Notes: generated by a model from the sequence alone, not told the origin. A DNA stretch of 63,288 nt, filler included, from Reticulomyxa filosa (GCA_000512085.1; 10 parts of 10 records of this genome joined end to end with filler, not necessarily neighbours in it), one strand, 5' to 3'. Shown: positions 39,788 to 48,700, counted from the first letter of the whole stretch. A program made the numbers and translations.

Positions 39788-42763
39788 ATGGCATCTGCAA
39801 ACGTATCCAATAGATTATCAAAGCTTTTGAATCATCTGGAGGGTATGTTTTGCTATACTTCCTTTTTTTCCTCTTCTCTGTCACGTTAAGCGTCTTCAAC
39901 AGAAATCAAGAAAGATCAGACCCTTCAAAAACAAGAAACAAGTGGCTCAACCATCTCCCCAAAAGTGAGTGTATTAATTATAACAGTGATTGATTATACT
40001 TTTTATACTTAAATATTTTTCAAGGTGAGAAAAGAATTTTTTTTTAATTAACAAAAAAAAGGATCTGTGGCAACGATGGTACGACATACAAGTGAATGTA
40101 AAAGAGTTACAAAAAATTTTGGATCATGACAACTTTGAGATGCGAGATAAACTTCGAGAGGTGCTGAAAGATGACGTGTTTATTCCTCGTTTGCATCTGT
40201 CATTGTCAGAAGAGCGCGAATTGGCATTGCGACGATTAAAAAAGTTTACGGATACCAAACTGTTCTCAGTGCGAGATTTCGAATCCAACCCCCGAGCAAT
40301 TTTCGCAGCACATGAGATTGGTGGATACGGTGACGGGTCCACAGCGACGAAGATGACTGTCCAATTCAATTTGTTTGGCGGCACCGTTTTCAAAGTTTTG
40401 TTTTCAAATCGAGATGTCTGACACTTTGTCTGTATTCAATACTAAAATACATTGTATACATACATATGTATATGTGAGGGATATTTGGAGAAGAAAAAAA
40501 GAATTGGTTTTTGTTTTGTCATTTATTGCACATTTCCAGTTAGGCACAAAACGACATCACCATTTATTGGATGGTATCGATTCGTTGCATGACGTAGGAG
40601 TTAATAATTGAATCGATACATTTTTTCTTCATTTTTAATCATCTAAAAAACACACAAATAAATACATTGCACATAAAATGGATTTTAGAGAGTTTAAATT
40701 GTATATGCAGTATACATACACATATACATATATATGTGCACATGTATATGCAATGTTTTGACGCACTATTGTGTTACGTGACTTTTTTTTTTTTGAAAAA
40801 AAAAAGTGCTTTGCGTTGACCGAATTGGGCTATGGTAATAATGCAGTTGAAATGGAAACAACCGCAGCTTACGACCATTCGGACGGAACATGGACGGTGA
40901 ACACCCCCAGTCCGTTGGCACAAAAGTATTGGATAACCAATTCCGCTATTCATGCCCATTGGGCGGTGGTGTTTGCCCAAACCATTGTGGATAATACCAA
41001 TCATGGCATTCATGGATTCTTGGTCCCCATTCGCGATCGCAAAACTCATCAACCTTTGCCTGGGGTGCGCATTGAAGACATGGGATATAAATTTGGATGC
41101 AATGGGTAAGTTATCATTACATATCTTTACACAAACTTTGATTGGCATAACAATATTGACTTTTGGGGTTACAATTTACTTTTTTGCATTGTATATACAT
41201 GCGTGTATGCTTTATGACTCACATACATTTATATTTACATACAGTGTGGACAACGGCAAGTTGTGGTTCAATAACGTAAAGGTGCCCCGAGAAGCATTAT
41301 TGAATAAAATGAGCGATGTTGATGCCAAGGGTGTGTTCACCAGTACCATTAAAAAAAAAGAGACCGATTTTTAAAAGTGGCCGATCAACTCTTGAGTGGG
41401 CGCATTTGTATTGCTGCCATGATGTTGAGCTCATCTAAATTTGCCCTCGCTAGTGCCTTGCGCTATGCTGCTACAAGGCTTTGCGTCGGCCCAACTGGAA
41501 AATCAGACACTGCCATTTTAGAATATCAACTGCAACAAAGAGCTTTGATGCCTTTGTTGGCCAACACTCTTTGCTTAAATTTCGGCTTGAATTATGTCAA
41601 AGATAGGTTCGTAGTGCGTTCATTATTTTGTCAATTTCTTAAATATATATGTATATACATTTTTTTAATAAAATTTTAATCTTTCAATGTTTATGATGGA
41701 AATGGACATAGATATTCTGGTATTGGACCAAATGATCCTCAAGAAGTTGTCATCCTGGTATGGCTGATAGTCTTTCTCAAACAAATGAAAAGAATTGTTT
41801 ACGCATATGTGACACAAGATTTGTTTGTCCAAAAAAAATTTAAAAAATGAAAAAATAGTGCTGCGGCATTAAACCTTTAATTTCGTGGCATAGCAATGAA
41901 ACGTCGACTATTTGTCGCGAGCGATGTGGTGGCCAGGGCTATTTGTCTATCAATATGCTCTCTTCTACAATCACCTTTGCACATGCAGGCATGACCGCTG
42001 AAGGAGATAATAGTGTACTGTATCAGAAAGTCAGCAAAGAATTGTTGGACCGAATGCGTCAGAAAAAACACGTCTTCAATGACAAAGAGATCAAAGAACA
42101 CTTACAAAAATTGAATTGGAATGATCCCTCATCTTTGCAATATCTATTTTTGGCTTTAGAAAAGTTGTGCTTGGAGACCTTAGGCATGAAATTAATGACA
42201 GCTGTTGGTGGTAACAATGACAAGCTATTCCATGTGTGGATGAAAGAACAAAGCGATTGGATTCAATCCAGTGCTTCTGCTTATGCAAATCGAGTTACTA
42301 CACGTCTTTGTTGTGTTGATTTTTGTATTTTGTCCCCTTCTCCAAAACTTACACAAATTACAATGTTGTATGTAACAATCGTGTTCGTGCGAACATTTTG
42401 AATAATTAACTACCTTTGCATATACAGATAGTTTTTGAGGCGTCGCTGAAAGTCTTGAAACAAGTCCAAGATGATTATTTACGCACAGTAATTGAAAAGT
42501 CTATTTTGCTGGCTCAATTAGCTGCAATTGAAAAAAATATTGGCAAATTGGTTAGCTATTCGTTGATTAGCACAAAAGATGGCCAAAATTTGGGCGATCA
42601 CATCAACAAATTGTGCAAATTTTTGGCTCCAAAATGTTTGTCGATATGCCAAGCCTTTGGCATTCCAGAAGAACGATTTCCTCCCATTGCTAGGGATTGG
42701 GTTGAATATAACAAGTGGGACAATCAAGGAGAAATTTATACTCACCACCCTTTGACCTCATAG
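39788..42763 (+). CDS. ACOX: Peroxisomal acyl-CoA oxidase with N-terminal PTS2; multi-exon
   Basis: Motifs [43 protein letters not shown] and TAEGDNSVL. Exon 1 [17 protein letters not shown] contains RL-x5-HL. One apparent A-run indel at 41351-41359. Confidence 0.92.
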
Positions 42764-43484
42764 ATATTTTTGGTGTGTTAAAAATTTTGTCACTTTTGAC
42801 ATTTATCCTGAAATGCTGTGCAACTGTGGATTCTTTTTCCTTGCATAACTAAGGGTAAAATAATAAAATTTAAAACTATTTCACTTCTTTGAAGATAAAT
42901 CTAGCTTAAAAATGTAAACCTTCGCAAGTTTCTCTGTATTTGCCAATTTTAATTACAAAATAGATTTGGATGATACTGCAAATGCAGCCTTACACCCAGA
43001 GAAATTATGGCACCCCCAACCTTTTAACAGTGCGGTGCTCAATAAAGTGTAAAATGAAATAGTTCTTTTGGACAAATCGCAACAAATGTCAAACAAGAAA
43101 AGATATGAAGTAATTATTAGTTAAAAAAACAGTATAGTTTTAGGATTTTGTTGTGGTATACTTCCACTGTAAGTCTCATGATGAGTATTTTTCTAAAAGT
43201 CTTGCTTGCGTCTTTACTTCTGCGAAAAATCAATGGCCACATTCAATTTTGTTTTAATGTTTCAATTACGCCATGGTTGGCAGTTTAGTTCTTCCAATAA
43301 GTTGCCTCTTTGTTTTTGCGTTATATGGTTGAAGATAAACACGTAACCACAATAAAATAGTTGTAATCCATTCTCCATAATCTGACGTTTTCAAACTAAA
43401 AAATAAAAATGCACAAGAAAAAATTAATGTTATAGATGTTGTCGTGTGTCAAAAAGTTTGAGACTAATATATTTTCCAAAAAAA

Positions 43485-43727
43485 GGGCTGGTAGTTCAAA
43501 GAGAACATGCGTCTGCCACGAAATGTGGTATCCTTAACTGCACATGCTGTGGCTTTGATCAATCTTCAAATTGAAGCATTTTGCTGCGATTTGAGTTGTT
43601 CTAGCAACTGCAACAACTTAAAGTTTGAGGCATAGCTAAGTTTCCATAACTCTGCCTTAACAGTAATACTAACCTTGAAGAAAACTGGTAGTTCGCATAG
43701 ATGTAGGTGCAAGTCCTACCCAGCCTA
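43485..43727 (+). tRNA. Atypical tRNA-like gene (apparent anticodon GCC) with a ~173-nt insert after position 37
   Basis: Acceptor GGGCTGG/CCAGCCT+A, D-arm GTTC-AAAGA-GAAC, anticodon stem TGCG/CGCA, variable loop TAGAT, T-arm GTAGG-TGCAAGT-CCTAC. T10 run just downstream. Confidence 0.55.
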
Positions 43728-44529
43728 TAAAATTTTTTTTTTGACAGTGCTTTAGTAGTTTTTGAAAATGTCGCGGTTTCCTTAAAAAATGTGATTTGCA
43801 GGCCTCAAATACATTCAATTTTATATCACATTTCAAAATCTCTCAGTTTGTTACGTCGCGTGTCAACATGCTGCACAGCCACAAACAAGAATTAACGTAT
43901 TGTTTGGTGAGGAAAAAGTATTTTTGATAAAAATGTTAAGATTCAGCGTGTAGTAGCCTGTAATTGAGTTAATATTTGAAGCAAGGTAATTGGAGGATTG
44001 AGAATACCAAAGTATACAATTTTGAAGATCGTGACGACAGTTGTGGGCATGGACTGTTAGCTGTGCCTTTGTGAAACGAAAAGCTCTGGAATTTCAAAAA
44101 ACTGAAAACAGGCGAAGTGTTTTACTGATAAATACACACACAATTATCATGCAAACTGAAACGTTTGTGCTGCAAGGAACATCTTTGTAGACTTTTTCAA
44201 CATCAAAGGTTCGAACTTGTAAAGAGAGGCAATTTTTGTAAATTAATGGCCATAGTTAACAATTATCTCATTTGAATGTGCTGTAGTTTGCAAAAAGAAT
44301 ATAACGTCATAATTTCACGTTACAAAGAATTAAGTTTTCCATTTTGTTATTCCAAGTGAACAAATGAAACCAATTTAACTCTCAACAATACAAAAGACAA
44401 TTTACACTCAATTGAATTAAAAATCTAAAATAAAAACAAATATTCATGATCAAACAAAGCATAATCCTAATAACTCAGTTTTTTCTCAATTGTTTGTTCA
44501 GACTATACGCAAAATATTATACTTGTATT

Positions 44530-44960
44530 TTCGGCTTCTACAACACGCAGCACATCCGCAAATCTCTGCACATACTGGGCATTTCTATCTACGTAGATTA
44601 TATAATGTATGAAAAACATAAGAGCAAAACAAGAAAACGTAAGACATAAAGTTGTGTGTGTTTGCTTTTAACTCGTCTATCTCGGGTTTTGATGAGTAAT
44701 TAGCGAATCATTGCAGAACTTATTCGATGGAATGATATTTGGATGAACATTGTGCAACAAATTTTTTAAGGCATCTTTTTAAAACGCTACTTCCACGTTT
44801 TTTTCCAGGACCCCATTTCACATTCTTACAAAAAAGAAGTTTTCTGATCCTTTTGTTATTCTTGCATTGATTGCAACTTGTTTTTGATTGGACGTATTCT
44901 GGAAGCTGAATATTCAATTTGATTCAATGCCAATTTCATCTTCGTCAATGAATTTTTCGA
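44530..44960 (-). pseudogene. zf-4CXXC_R1 (CDCA7/JMJD-type) zinc-finger pseudogene
   Basis: SCNQCK...FCKN...CLKKF.AQC and *KCPVCAEICGCAACCR, with TAG where the conserved Trp is expected. A further degenerate segment lies upstream at 45254-45730. Confidence 0.55.
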
Positions 44961-46298
44961 GACTAGGAGCTACTTACTAATCAATCTTTTATGACGTCCA
45001 TTTTTGAACAACTAATATTGTCAAAAGTTTTCACGTTGCTTGTAGGCACAATCAATTTCGTTACATCAGATATTCAAAGAGATTTTGTAAAAAAAAAAAT
45101 TGTTTAAGACACTCCTACACATTGTCAATTTACTACGCAGAAGAACATAATGCTTCGTAAATAGTCAACCGTAATTAGTATACAGTTGGCTAATACTTAG
45201 TCTATTCTCACTTTGCAGTAAATGTAACAACAGTTAGCAGGACGTCGCTTAAACTACTTTTTTTTTACAAAAACTCCTTTACGTACCCGACAACGGTGCC
45301 AATTCGAACATGAAAACTTTTCAATGCAACAGCTCGTCCAATATAAATGAACCAGTTTGATGATAGCAAACAGATCATCGACGCACATGTTTTTTTTAAC
45401 ATTATGTCCACAATTTTTTTGAGCGCGAATATGGTCCATTTTCTGCAGCTTGCTGTGTTTGAATGGCCTTTACTGCAAGATACTTCATTTTCTTCACAAT
45501 CGCGCTATTTATGTCTTGACTTCCGCTTTGGATCGTCAAATGGCTCTCTTTTTTTCAGACCATGCATCCCTTTGCATCATCCATGGATTTTTTTTTAATG
45601 CATGGAATTTTTTTATCATGCAAATTGCATCGATATTTTGTCAATGTATTTGGAGTTGTGTGATGCCAATACCACCTTAGCTCTTTTTTTTTTCCAAAAT
45701 AAATACACTTGGCTTGAGTCATACTCCATGCCACTTATTCTTTTACGGTTTCCTCTATTGAATCGAATGACGAGGAGAGAACTAAATAACACACTTTAAG
45801 ACAACTTAAAACAGAACGTGTTTTCTTAAAACAAAATAAAAGTCTCCCCCTTGAACCAAAAGATTTTAACACAAATTCAAAGTGGATTAAAAAGGAAAAA
45901 AAAAAAAATGTTTAAGTATCAATACAATATAGAAATAGCTCAATTGGATAATGTTATTCACACTTATGTACGTTTCCTGCATTTTGTTTTTTATTCGTTT
46001 CAATTTTTTTTTTTTAATGCCTCCACTTTTTTTCGATTAAAAAATAAAGCATTGAGAAACAACATGCTTGAGAAAGGCTCAATGATAAAAAAAACGATTG
46101 AATTTTTCAAAAACGTAAATGCACAGATTAAATAGAGATCACTTTCATAATGTTTACAGCTTTCAAATATTTAAGCTGTTTGTTTTTTAAAAAAAAAANN
46201 NNNNNNNNNNNNNNNNNNNNNNNNNNNNNNNNNNNNNNNNNNTTAATTAATTAANNNNNNNNNNNNNNNNNNNNNNNNNNNNNNNNNNNNNNNNNNNN

Positions 46299-47400
46299 TC
46301 AGTTTATCGAAATCATTTATCCATCCAAATGTAATGTATAATATTCGAATCCAATGCTGGATAATGATTTGGATTTCATTTTCATCTGGCTAATTCAATC
46401 ACAAGCCAAACACAATAAATACAATTAAACTTGAAGACAATCAACTTTTAGAAATTTGGAATAAAACTTACCATTACTAGTTGAGTTAAAGTTTGTTCAT
46501 GATTGATAAGATCTGTCATTTTGCAACGATATTCTTCAATGATGTAAAATGGAAAAGTTTTCCTTTTTTTTCAAGTTCAATAAAGGGACTTTAAAAAATA
46601 GAATTTTGCAATATCTGTATTTTTTCTTAATGAAGAAGCAAAAGAAAAATAAATAAAATGAAAACTAGACAGAAAAACAAAGATTTATTGAAAATAAATT
46701 ATATCTAGTTCTTTTTCATAATTCTTTGATAGAAATTGGATGTTGCAACTGAACGCTCCAGAACAAATTAGTCATTTTATTAATTTGATTTGCAATCAAG
46801 TTGCAAACAGTTCAGTTGACCCTTTTCTTTTTTTTCTTAAAGCATAAAAATTTCATTTACTTTCTTTTCAATGATATAAATTTAAAATATCTTATTCTAT
46901 TATTTCCTTTGATCATATACACTTCATTCTTATTTGATTGAATTAAAAAAAAAATTGTTTTGATAATGATATGGCAAAAATTTTACTGAATAGTCAATAT
47001 TATTTACACAATTAGTATGTTCAGTGAATGCATTGATTAATTTGGATGATGAGCAATATACAGATTAAAATTGATAGTTGATAATAAAATAGAAGATTCA
47101 TAAGATTATTTTTTGTGTTAAAGATTTAATTTTTGAAGTAATTATTGATAATATTGAGTTAATTTGGAATTATTTTCTTCCAATGCTTTAATTATTGTTT
47201 TTCTTTATCATTAAAACTTTTTTTTATTATTTCAATATCTGCTTGGTGCTACATTTGTCTCAAATTACCTTCATTTATTAAATGATTATTTAAATCTTTT
47301 AATTTTCCTTTAAAATTGCATGTAATATCACGTGATTGAATTGGACAAGAGTTGTTTGTTTTAAGAAATAATTGTAGACAATGCTCTTCAGTCTTTACTC
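46299..47400 (-). pseudogene. Decayed RING/TRAF-zinc finger + coiled-coil + pre-WD40 family member
   Basis: HCLQLFLKTNNSCPIQ...CNFKGKLKDLNNHL and EIQIIIQHWIRILYITFGWINDFDKL, a motif I recall from an expanded Reticulomyxa WD40 family. Many stops. Confidence 0.55.
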
Positions 47401-48056
47401 ATCTTTTGCGCTTTCTTCCTTTGCTTGCTTCATTTTTTTTTGTTTATAAAAATGAAGAGATGTAGTTCTCTTTTATGAAGATTTTCTATTTAAAAACAAT
47501 GCAATTTCACAAAAATCAATTATAATTTTTCCTTATTCTTTTCACCTTGCTGACTTCTGAGTAGTAAAACTTGTGCAATTCAATTGTTTATTCTTTGTGT
47601 CTATTGAAGATTTCACAGTGAATTACTCTGTTTACAATAATTGTTTTCAACTGAAAATTGTCTTATAATGAAATTGTATTAATAATTATACAAACTTAGA
47701 AATATATTTGAGTTGTCCAAATGCTCTTCTTTCCAAAACGCCACTTGGTTGGGTTGTGTGATGTTTAGCCTTGGAGTACTGTAATGCAGGATGAGTGAAG
47801 ATGTAATAGCTTATAAAAGGACCTAAGCATCGATAACAAAATTAAAATATGTATAAAAAAATGAAATGATCAAACCAATTTGGGATGATAGACAAATATA
47901 TTGCAAACGTATTTGTGAAATTCCGGTGAATAAAGCTTGGTGTGGTAAAAATTTAGACCGCAATCAGTTTTGAATTTATTAATTTATTTTTTTTATATAT
48001 AAAAAGATGGGTAATAAAAAGAGTAACAAAACAGTCAAAAATTTAATAAGCGATTT

Positions 48057-48700
48057 TCAAGTGATTTGCGCCCAAAAAACGACACCTGCGGTACAAAACC
48101 CAAAAGCGATACATCGAATGCAATACATCCACCGGACATTTGCTCTGAATTGCCACAAATGCTCACGTATGCTTGGCCTTGGCTTTAACCTTAGTCTTCT
48201 TGTTGTTGCTCTTGTCAACACGACTGGTCTTGTTATACCCATGGGCAATGGGGAATGTACCCAACTCCTTTTTGTACCGACGTAGGCCGTGGTAATTGGA
48301 ACCTCGTTACCCAACCAGCGTAGTCTTTTGTACACTGGTCTTTTCATTTCGCACTTTGTTTCCTTTTTTTTTTTTGTGTATAAATAATTTATTGGTTTTG
48401 TGCAAAGGATTAAGAACAGTAAGGAAGAGCGTGAGGGGTGAAAAAAAAGGACCAATTGTTGCAAAAAGTTCAACTTCTATGTGGGATAGCTTAATCTGGA
48501 TATGCCTTATTGACACAAAAAATTCGGCGCATAGACCCAACAAAACGCCTTTTTGCAACATATTTTGTGTTTTATTTGTGATTGTAAAGATTTTCTTATT
48601 GTGTTTCCAAGATCTTGCCATGATTATGTATCCGCATGGAAAAGAGAGCATTTTGTCTGCAAAGATCAAATCTACCAATTCCTGTGCTCCGTTCACCATT
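48057..48700 (-). CDS. Hypothetical protein with C-terminal hydrophobic tail (model uncertain)
   Basis: GC-richer exon-like ORFs ending IAFGFCTAGVVFWAQIT*. Confidence 0.3.

Follow-up and report, generated by a model that had tools for sequence, protein, structure and literature searches.

A transcribed tRNA-Gly(GCC)-type gene of Reticulomyxa filosa with a 173-nt insert at the canonical intron site, possibly a very long tRNA intron

In nuclear tRNA genes, position 37/38 is the one site where introns normally lie. A different arrangement of tRNA parts is found in tmRNA and the YrlA Y RNAs of bacteria, which lack an intact D arm, anticodon stem and anticodon loop. In eukaryotes, we know of no class of tRNA-framed noncoding RNA in which a complete tRNA body encloses a long retained insert. 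As for how long a canonical tRNA intron can be, a tRNA intron of about 64 nt in Ostreococcus tauri is termed "unusually long" in one passage of a 2026 review (PMC13578239). Here we describe a transcribed tRNA-Gly(GCC)-type gene of the foraminiferan Reticulomyxa filosa whose anticodon loop is interrupted at the canonical site by 173 nt. Our favoured reading, to which we give a probability of roughly 0.48, is that this insert is a very long tRNA intron, with splicing as a prediction; the tRNA ancestry of the unit and its transcription we judge to be real.

The gene lies in a stretch of 63,288 nt, referred to below as the window, which is eukaryotic in character: it contains introns, N gaps (792 N), many homopolymer runs and a GC content of about 35%, and a kinesin exon within it is 99% identical to a Reticulomyxa filosa protein. 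The gene itself is intergenic, about 720 nt downstream of the stop codon of an acyl-CoA oxidase whose exon has only distant named relatives. A TATA-like, A/T-rich stretch, TAATATATTTT, can be read directly at 43465-43475, 10-20 nt 5' of the tRNA start, and might act as a promoter of the gene. Retarian mitochondrial genomes are described, in the portion of a paper that bears on them (PMC10127745), as having no tRNA genes, so on that account foraminiferal mitochondrial tRNAs must all be nuclear-encoded; we give this as context only. Reticulomyxa filosa can be cultured.

All features of the unit lie on the plus strand, and the whole cloverleaf spans 43485-43727, corresponding to an RNA of 243 nt. 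The acceptor stem opens with GGGCTGG (43485-43491), which forms seven base pairs with 43720-43726, G1-U72 among them, and is followed by a D arm, GTTC-AAAGA-GAAC, with a loop of 5 nt (43494-43506); both were found by ARAGORN and by folding. The remaining parts follow the ARAGORN assignment. The 5' strand of the anticodon stem, TGCGT (43508-43512), pairs with TCGCA (43693-43697) save for a U31-U39 mismatch, and the loop begins with CTGCCA (43513-43518), that is, C32 U33 G34 C35 C36 A37 with the anticodon GCC. At this point, position 37/38, the cloverleaf is interrupted by the 173-nt insert (43519-43691), which ends in TGGTAG and is present in RNA contigs. Position 38 (T) and the 3' strand of the anticodon stem resume at 43692-43697, leading to a variable region TAGAT (U44 A45 G46 A47 U48; 43698-43702), a T arm GTAGG-TGCAAGT-CCTAC with G at position 55 (43703-43719), and the acceptor 3' strand CCAGCCT (43720-43726) with the discriminator A (43727), the two together occupying 43720-43727. 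A trailer TAAAA then runs into ten T residues (43733-43742), read directly and likely to be an RNA polymerase III terminator at which transcription would stop. The initial annotation, made without knowledge of the source organism, had described four paired arms with G1-U72 and a U31-U39 mismatch, a 5-nt D loop lacking GG, a T loop reading TGC, and an insert at 37/38 whose TGGTAG end is complementary to CTGCCA, followed by the T run; each of these features was where it had been placed. The long-intron ARAGORN search that it had proposed returned the same parse, Gly(GCC) with a 173-nt intron, when the intron was fixed at 37/38, and a free search instead gave Tyr(GTA) with an intron at 30/31. Since both junctions are flanked by CTG, the borders of the intron can shift.

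For gene finders, the tRNA-Gly-like gene is borderline. At default thresholds ARAGORN found no tRNA in the 63-kb window, with introns switched on or off. With lowered thresholds, the gene scored 99.8, just under the default cut-off and at the top of seven matches. Among dinucleotide-shuffled windows, 1 of 60 and 7 of 400 (8/460 in total) also reached at least 99.8. The Rfam check proposed earlier gave a tRNA match of 15.2 bits, over 43682-43727 only, and short of the gathering score of 29. At gathering score Rfam returned nothing, and in E-value mode no other plausible family appeared on either strand of 43478-43745; SRP, RNase P/MRP, vault, Y, U6 and 7SK RNAs gave no match at E<=10 on either strand of this interval, and neither ARAGORN nor Rfam found a tmRNA. 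We also searched by eye, using known motifs (C/D or H/ACA in the case of snoRNAs), for features of SRP, RNase P/MRP, vault, Y, U-snRNA, SL, telomerase and snoRNAs, and these searches gained no Rfam support; a CUGA box D was absent on inspection. Default tRNA finders miss genes of this kind, and in this AT-rich genome long-intron ARAGORN searches produce a heavy tail of false positives. The two next-best lowered-threshold matches, 47367-47593 (score 95.0, intron 151 nt) and 48236-48488 (score 98.1, intron 159 nt), were considered as members of a local family of long-intron tRNAs and rejected as chance matches, since their stems are mismatched and they contain internal T runs.

Folding of the 243-nt RNA agreed with the cloverleaf. 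In the unconstrained fold, the acceptor stem had pair probabilities of 0.86-1.0, the D arm about 0.9, the T arm about 0.85 and the anticodon stem about 0.55. A fold forced into the full cloverleaf was as stable as the minimum found without constraint, at -69.2 kcal/mol (z -2.23). The ten T residues, a separate feature, begin 6 nt beyond the discriminator; T runs of at least 8 number 89 on the plus strand of the 63,288-nt window, so the chance that one starts no more than 12 nt from a given point is about 1.7%. Three results lift the gene above chance: the tRNA-core nucleotides are kept, the T arm is shared with real tRNAs, and RNA contigs match 43495-43685 exactly and include a diverged relative.

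With regard to the core, we numbered the RNA by textbook yeast tRNA-Phe numbering, under which the tertiary contacts presumably kept are U8 with A14 and A21, A9 with U12-A23, C13-G22 with G46, A15 with U48, and G19 with C56. The D loop can be read, by our assumption, as A14 A15 A18 G19 A21, and the same numbering leads us to take G53-C61, U54 and A58 as retained in the T arm and U33 and A37 in the anticodon loop. In our own numbering, the conserved tRNA set U8, A14, G18, G19, A21, U33, R37, G53, U54, U55, C56, A58 and C61 is present except at G18, which is A, and U55, which is G. The loop CUGCCA(C) stands intact and uninterrupted. Neither decay of a copy nor chance would be expected to leave all of these core nucleotides in place, and the tRNA body looks maintained. 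This bears directly on the idea that the unit is a relic, a former tRNA-Gly gene with junk in its anticodon loop whose internal promoter is still active and whose product has no function. The borderline gene-finder scores, G1-U72, the U31-U39 mismatch and G55 would all suit a gene in decay, but the arms are perfectly paired save for the single U-U, and the tertiary core is retained, so that we consider a relic unlikely.

The one real oddity of the gene is G55. The 18-mer at 43703-43720 is present in 68 prokaryotic loci, and in 30 of these the identical T arm belongs to a tRNA called by ARAGORN at default thresholds with scores of 101-121: 22 Tyr, 4 Met, 2 Lys, 1 Asn and 1 Gly. Rfam likewise placed a tRNA over the 18-mer in 8 of the 20 loci that were submitted. 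Across the 68 loci there are 76 tRNAs in total, 41 with a TGC T loop and 25 with TTC. Among the former, 33 of 41 have AG and no GG in the D loop, as do 2 of the 25 with TTC, whereas 23 of 25 TTC tRNAs have GG; many Tyr genes are near-identical, so these counts do not represent independent events. The TGC/AG pattern also occurs in Thr, Arg, Lys, His, Cys, Leu, Glu, Gln and Asn genes, and the D loop of the Reticulomyxa gene, AAAGA, contains AG. The loss of both the D-loop GG and U55, which had been suspected to be co-ordinated, thus has a natural precedent, because TGC T loops go together with AG D loops in the bacterial tRNAs of these loci. From these comparisons, A18/G55 appears to be a natural variant of the tRNA elbow that is common in tRNA-Tyr of Patescibacteria and Acidobacteria. 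The passages returned by our literature search did not describe an A18/G55 elbow pairing, and we make no claim of novelty for it. The agreement of G55 and A18 with a natural, functional variant also weakens the reading of G55 as a mark of decay.

The hairpin of this 18-mer, GTAGGTGCAAGTCCTACC, also occurs outside tRNAs, in 38 of the 68 loci. These include four loci from one Latescibacterota MAG (L023, L053, L058 and L065) and a set of cyanobacterial loci (among them L037, L043, L046, L063, L064, L066, L070, L071, L077 and L085). The non-tRNA copies look like repeated elements, since their flanks are alike within each group and some lie at contig ends. All six cyanobacterial loci that were among the 20 submitted to Rfam were without a match at the gathering score.

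Evidence for transcription came from a run search with 43200-44000, which led to two freshwater metatranscriptomes from two studies, the contigs of which were mapped to 41800-45800. Run X1 contains a 151-nt contig identical to 43495-43645 (0 differences, depth 11.9) and run X2 a 151-nt contig identical to 43535-43685 (0 differences, depth 2); each is one read length long and may represent very few molecules. Together, the exact contigs span 43495-43685, and they give neither the strand, the ends nor the level of the RNA. The segments 43485-43494 and 43686-43742 are free of contigs, and such gaps prove nothing. In both runs, the rest of 41800-45800, acyl-CoA oxidase exons included, had no contig cover, and these silent flanks therefore argue against carry-over of DNA. 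By a rough estimate, if two 151-nt fragments overlapping the query were placed at random, both would land within the 258-nt unit in about 1-2% of cases. The X1 contig runs across the junction of 5' exon and insert, so what it records is unspliced RNA, and the two contigs together carry nearly the whole insert. The spliced joint 43518/43692 was not among the contig joints, which is uninformative, as a modified RNA of 70 nt would not appear in contigs.

Run X1 also contains a diverged relative, a 230-nt contig of depth 6. It shares two blocks with the Reticulomyxa unit. The first, at 43502-43532 on the plus strand (29 of 31 letters in common), comprises the 3' strand of the D stem, the anticodon stem-loop and the first 14 nt of the insert; the second, at 43630-43651 on the plus strand (21 of 22 letters), lies within the insert, although at 22 nt it falls below the 30 nt under which such short joint sides often derive from other organisms or repeats. 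Between the blocks are 94 unrelated letters in the relative versus 97 in the tRNA-Gly-like gene. The nine letters that precede the first block in the relative read like a D stem and loop. The D arm of the relative differs, and from the D stem onward the contig measures 230 nt versus about 234 nt for the tRNA-Gly-like unit. The insert, in the form of block 2 and the 14 nt of block 1, is conserved in the relative at least as well as the D arm. A relic would have to account for a diverged relative in which the blocks are kept at 94-95% identity. It had been proposed from the outset that a lack of expression and of conserved copies would speak against the gene; what we found instead is contig cover of 43495-43685 from two studies and a diverged relative.

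Two smaller points concern the relative. One exact contig starts at 43495 and the relative at the equivalent position, which may reflect a genuine 5' end, although contigs cannot show ends. The 11-mer ACAGTGCTTTA at 43744-43754, just 3' of the ten T residues, is shared with the loose 3' end of the relative contig. The full 30-mer of this loose end found no place in 43001-44300 at up to 8 errors, and the sharing of ACAGTGCTTTA is probably due to chance, yet it is unexplained. Further relatives were sought elsewhere. The 63-kb window holds no second copy of the gene; two conserved 10-mers, scanned against metagenomes, led to 8 loci, each of them a chance match beyond which the similarity did not extend; two scans of viral contigs gave 4 and 6 loci, none of which was among the BLAST matches at E<=1e-3; and the prokaryote collections yielded no relative, BLAST similarity there being confined to 22-44 nt over the T arm.

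We also considered a copy of a tRNA-derived SINE or another mobile element. Such an element could have a tRNA-like head, a diverged relative that is expressed in the same run, and a direct repeat, here the 10-nt CTGGTAGTTC found at 43488 and 43685. Its architecture would be wrong, however: at the 3' end of this gene, the T arm and the 3' strand of the acceptor stem complete a full cloverleaf, an arrangement that SINEs do not have. No other copy was found in 63 kb, there is no A-rich or simple-repeat tail, and the relative is conserved in blocks and not uniformly. Of all the readings, we regard a mobile element as the least probable. The direct repeat could hint at a rearrangement, as would suit a relic, but CTGGTAGTTC cannot be a target-site duplication, as excision between the copies would delete the 3' strand of the D arm and the anticodon arm. 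We regard the repeat as unexplained or due to chance.

We then turn to the insert itself. The initial annotation had raised the possibility that it is a structured cargo domain, an idea that found no support, as the insert alone folds like its shuffled versions (z -0.43; 58 of 200 shuffles fold at least as well). The lack of structure would also suit junk in a relic. An origin of the insert by tandem duplication was considered and rejected: it contains no remnant of either tRNA half, the alignment scores being matched by 939 of 1000 and 368 of 1000 shuffles, and this absence of tRNA-half remnants is also at odds with a relic. The anticodon could pair with the insert in two ways, either CUGCCA with UGGUAG over 6 bp or within a local hairpin, UGCCAC-GAAAU-GUGGUA (43514-43530), that lies wholly inside block 1; both helices are improbable, with pair probabilities of 0.06-0.15, the hairpin at about 0.06. 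As judged by inspection, position 32 pairs in the most stable register with intron base -1, the final one of the intron; no 3-nt bulge would then remain at the 3' splice site, where a U/UU internal loop is all that can be seen. Inspection of the sequence revealed no bulge-helix-bulge. One internal T4 is present (43579-43582), and the contigs read through it. Three motifs in the insert, GTATCCTTAAC (43528-43538), CCTTAAC (43655-43661) and TACTAAC (43667-43673), resemble what we take to be, respectively, a U12-type 5' splice site, a U12-type branch site and a yeast-type branch site. They are probably coincidental, since no sensible spliceosomal product follows from them.

A 42-codon open reading frame (MRLPRNVV...) lies at 43507-43635. 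Its length is not unusual, as frames this long were found in 163 of 2000 shuffles and in 71 of 463 tiles of the window. No protein shares words with it, and a second protein search gave 0 matches at E<=0.001 among 1.84 billion representatives. On account of this ordinary length and the lack of protein relatives, we rejected a peptide as the product. In another explanation, the cloverleaf arose by chance over an unrelated small transcript such as a short mRNA of these 42 codons. The 8 shuffled windows in 460 that reach the ARAGORN score would allow such an accident; the TATA-like stretch is about 30 nt upstream of the contig start at 43495; and the blocks of the relative are spaced 3 nt differently, a change that would keep the frame. 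Beyond the ordinary frame length and missing protein relatives, a chance cloverleaf would leave unexplained the ten T residues, the kept core nucleotides and a T arm that is that of real tRNAs, and we consider it very unlikely.

The explanation that competes most directly with an intron is that the insert is never removed. The 243-nt RNA would then be the end product, a stable noncoding RNA framed by a tRNA, in which the tRNA body would serve RNA polymerase III transcription, end processing and stability and the conserved blocks would be functional. Several observations fit this picture: the insert-containing form is the only one found in the RNA libraries, the relative differs in the D arm but retains block 2 (21/22) and the insert's first 14 nt, the junctions appear on inspection to lack textbook splice-site structure, and the relative contig has about the same overall length. 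On the other hand, an intact seven-base anticodon loop with U33 and A37 would be useless in an RNA that does not decode, the insert folds no better than shuffles, no Rfam family matched on either strand, and contigs cannot show that a spliced form is absent. We consider the retained insert a live rival, although a doubtful one. A bolder version, which we hold to be more tentative still, is that Foraminifera possess a family of abundant, finished 243-nt tRNA-framed RNAs, in which the fully foldable Gly-tRNA body provides for RNA polymerase III transcription, end processing and stability and the conserved single-stranded blocks at 43519-43532 and 43630-43651 carry out the function, perhaps as guide or protein-binding sites. 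Such RNAs would form an as yet undescribed eukaryotic class of tRNA-scaffolded ncRNA.

We lean toward a long intron because the insert occupies the canonical site, the seven-base anticodon loop is intact and the core of a decoding tRNA is kept, and because precursors longer than 200 nt are what ordinary libraries capture. Of the two alternatives offered by the initial annotation, a strongly diverged tRNA whose intron is unusually long and a tRNA mimic that bears a cargo domain, the first is thus favoured, the structured cargo of the second is not supported, and a retained insert stays in contention. Several points count against the intron. The 3' junction appears on inspection not to be of the textbook kind, the most stable register leaving no 3-nt bulge; the helices between anticodon and insert have low pair probabilities; blocks of the insert are conserved in the relative, which would be unusual for a mere spacer; the internal T4 could terminate RNA polymerase III in some organisms, though the contigs read through; the Rfam tRNA match is low and confined to the 3' part; and the spliced product, at 99.8, scores below the ARAGORN default and is equalled in the shuffled windows counted above.

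If the insert is an intron, the gene would be expressed as follows. RNA polymerase III would transcribe it from internal A and B boxes and stop within the ten T residues. RNase P and RNase Z, both recognising the tRNA body, would process the ends, and the tRNA splicing endonuclease and ligase would remove the 173-nt insert to give a tRNA of 70 nt, in whose elbow an A18/G55 contact may replace G18/U55. Under this scheme, ordinary RNA-seq would capture the unspliced 243-nt precursor, and the short, modified mature tRNA would escape capture.

What the gene means depends on the fate of the insert. If it is spliced, it would be the longest canonical-site nuclear tRNA intron to our knowledge, as measured against one review passage and not a systematic survey, and eukaryotic tRNA splicing machinery would be able to handle 173 nt together with a non-textbook junction. 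If the product is a tRNA, the A18/G55 elbow variant, seen here in bacterial tRNAs, would extend to a eukaryotic nuclear gene. A retained insert would instead make the locus a tRNA-scaffolded RNA of a new kind, from a eukaryotic supergroup that has been little studied, and for the gene to be categorically new the insert would have to be functional as well as retained.

Compared with known systems, the closest are the intron-containing nuclear tRNA genes of eukaryotes, which are cut by the Sen/TSEN endonuclease. They share with the Reticulomyxa gene the cloverleaf, the insert at 37/38, a possible pairing between anticodon and intron, a short trailer followed by a T run, and a precursor that is visible in RNA. 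The Reticulomyxa insert is far longer (173 nt), its 3' splice site appears to fall outside the textbook 3-nt bulge, and its splicing is a prediction. Bacterial tRNAs with the T loop UGCAAGU carry exactly the same 18-nt T arm, and AG likewise replaces GG in their D loop, but they are prokaryotic and intronless and resemble the gene only over the T arm (22-44 nt by BLAST), and the sequences compared give no sign of common descent. With tmRNA and the bacterial YrlA Y RNAs, the gene shares the principle that the two ends of the RNA form an acceptor stem and T arm and a long body occupies the anticodon region; in those RNAs the body replaces that region, whereas here the D arm, anticodon stem and anticodon loop are all intact. 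Set against known nuclear tRNA genes, this gene departs in the 173-nt insert, the G55/A18 elbow and the apparently atypical junction.
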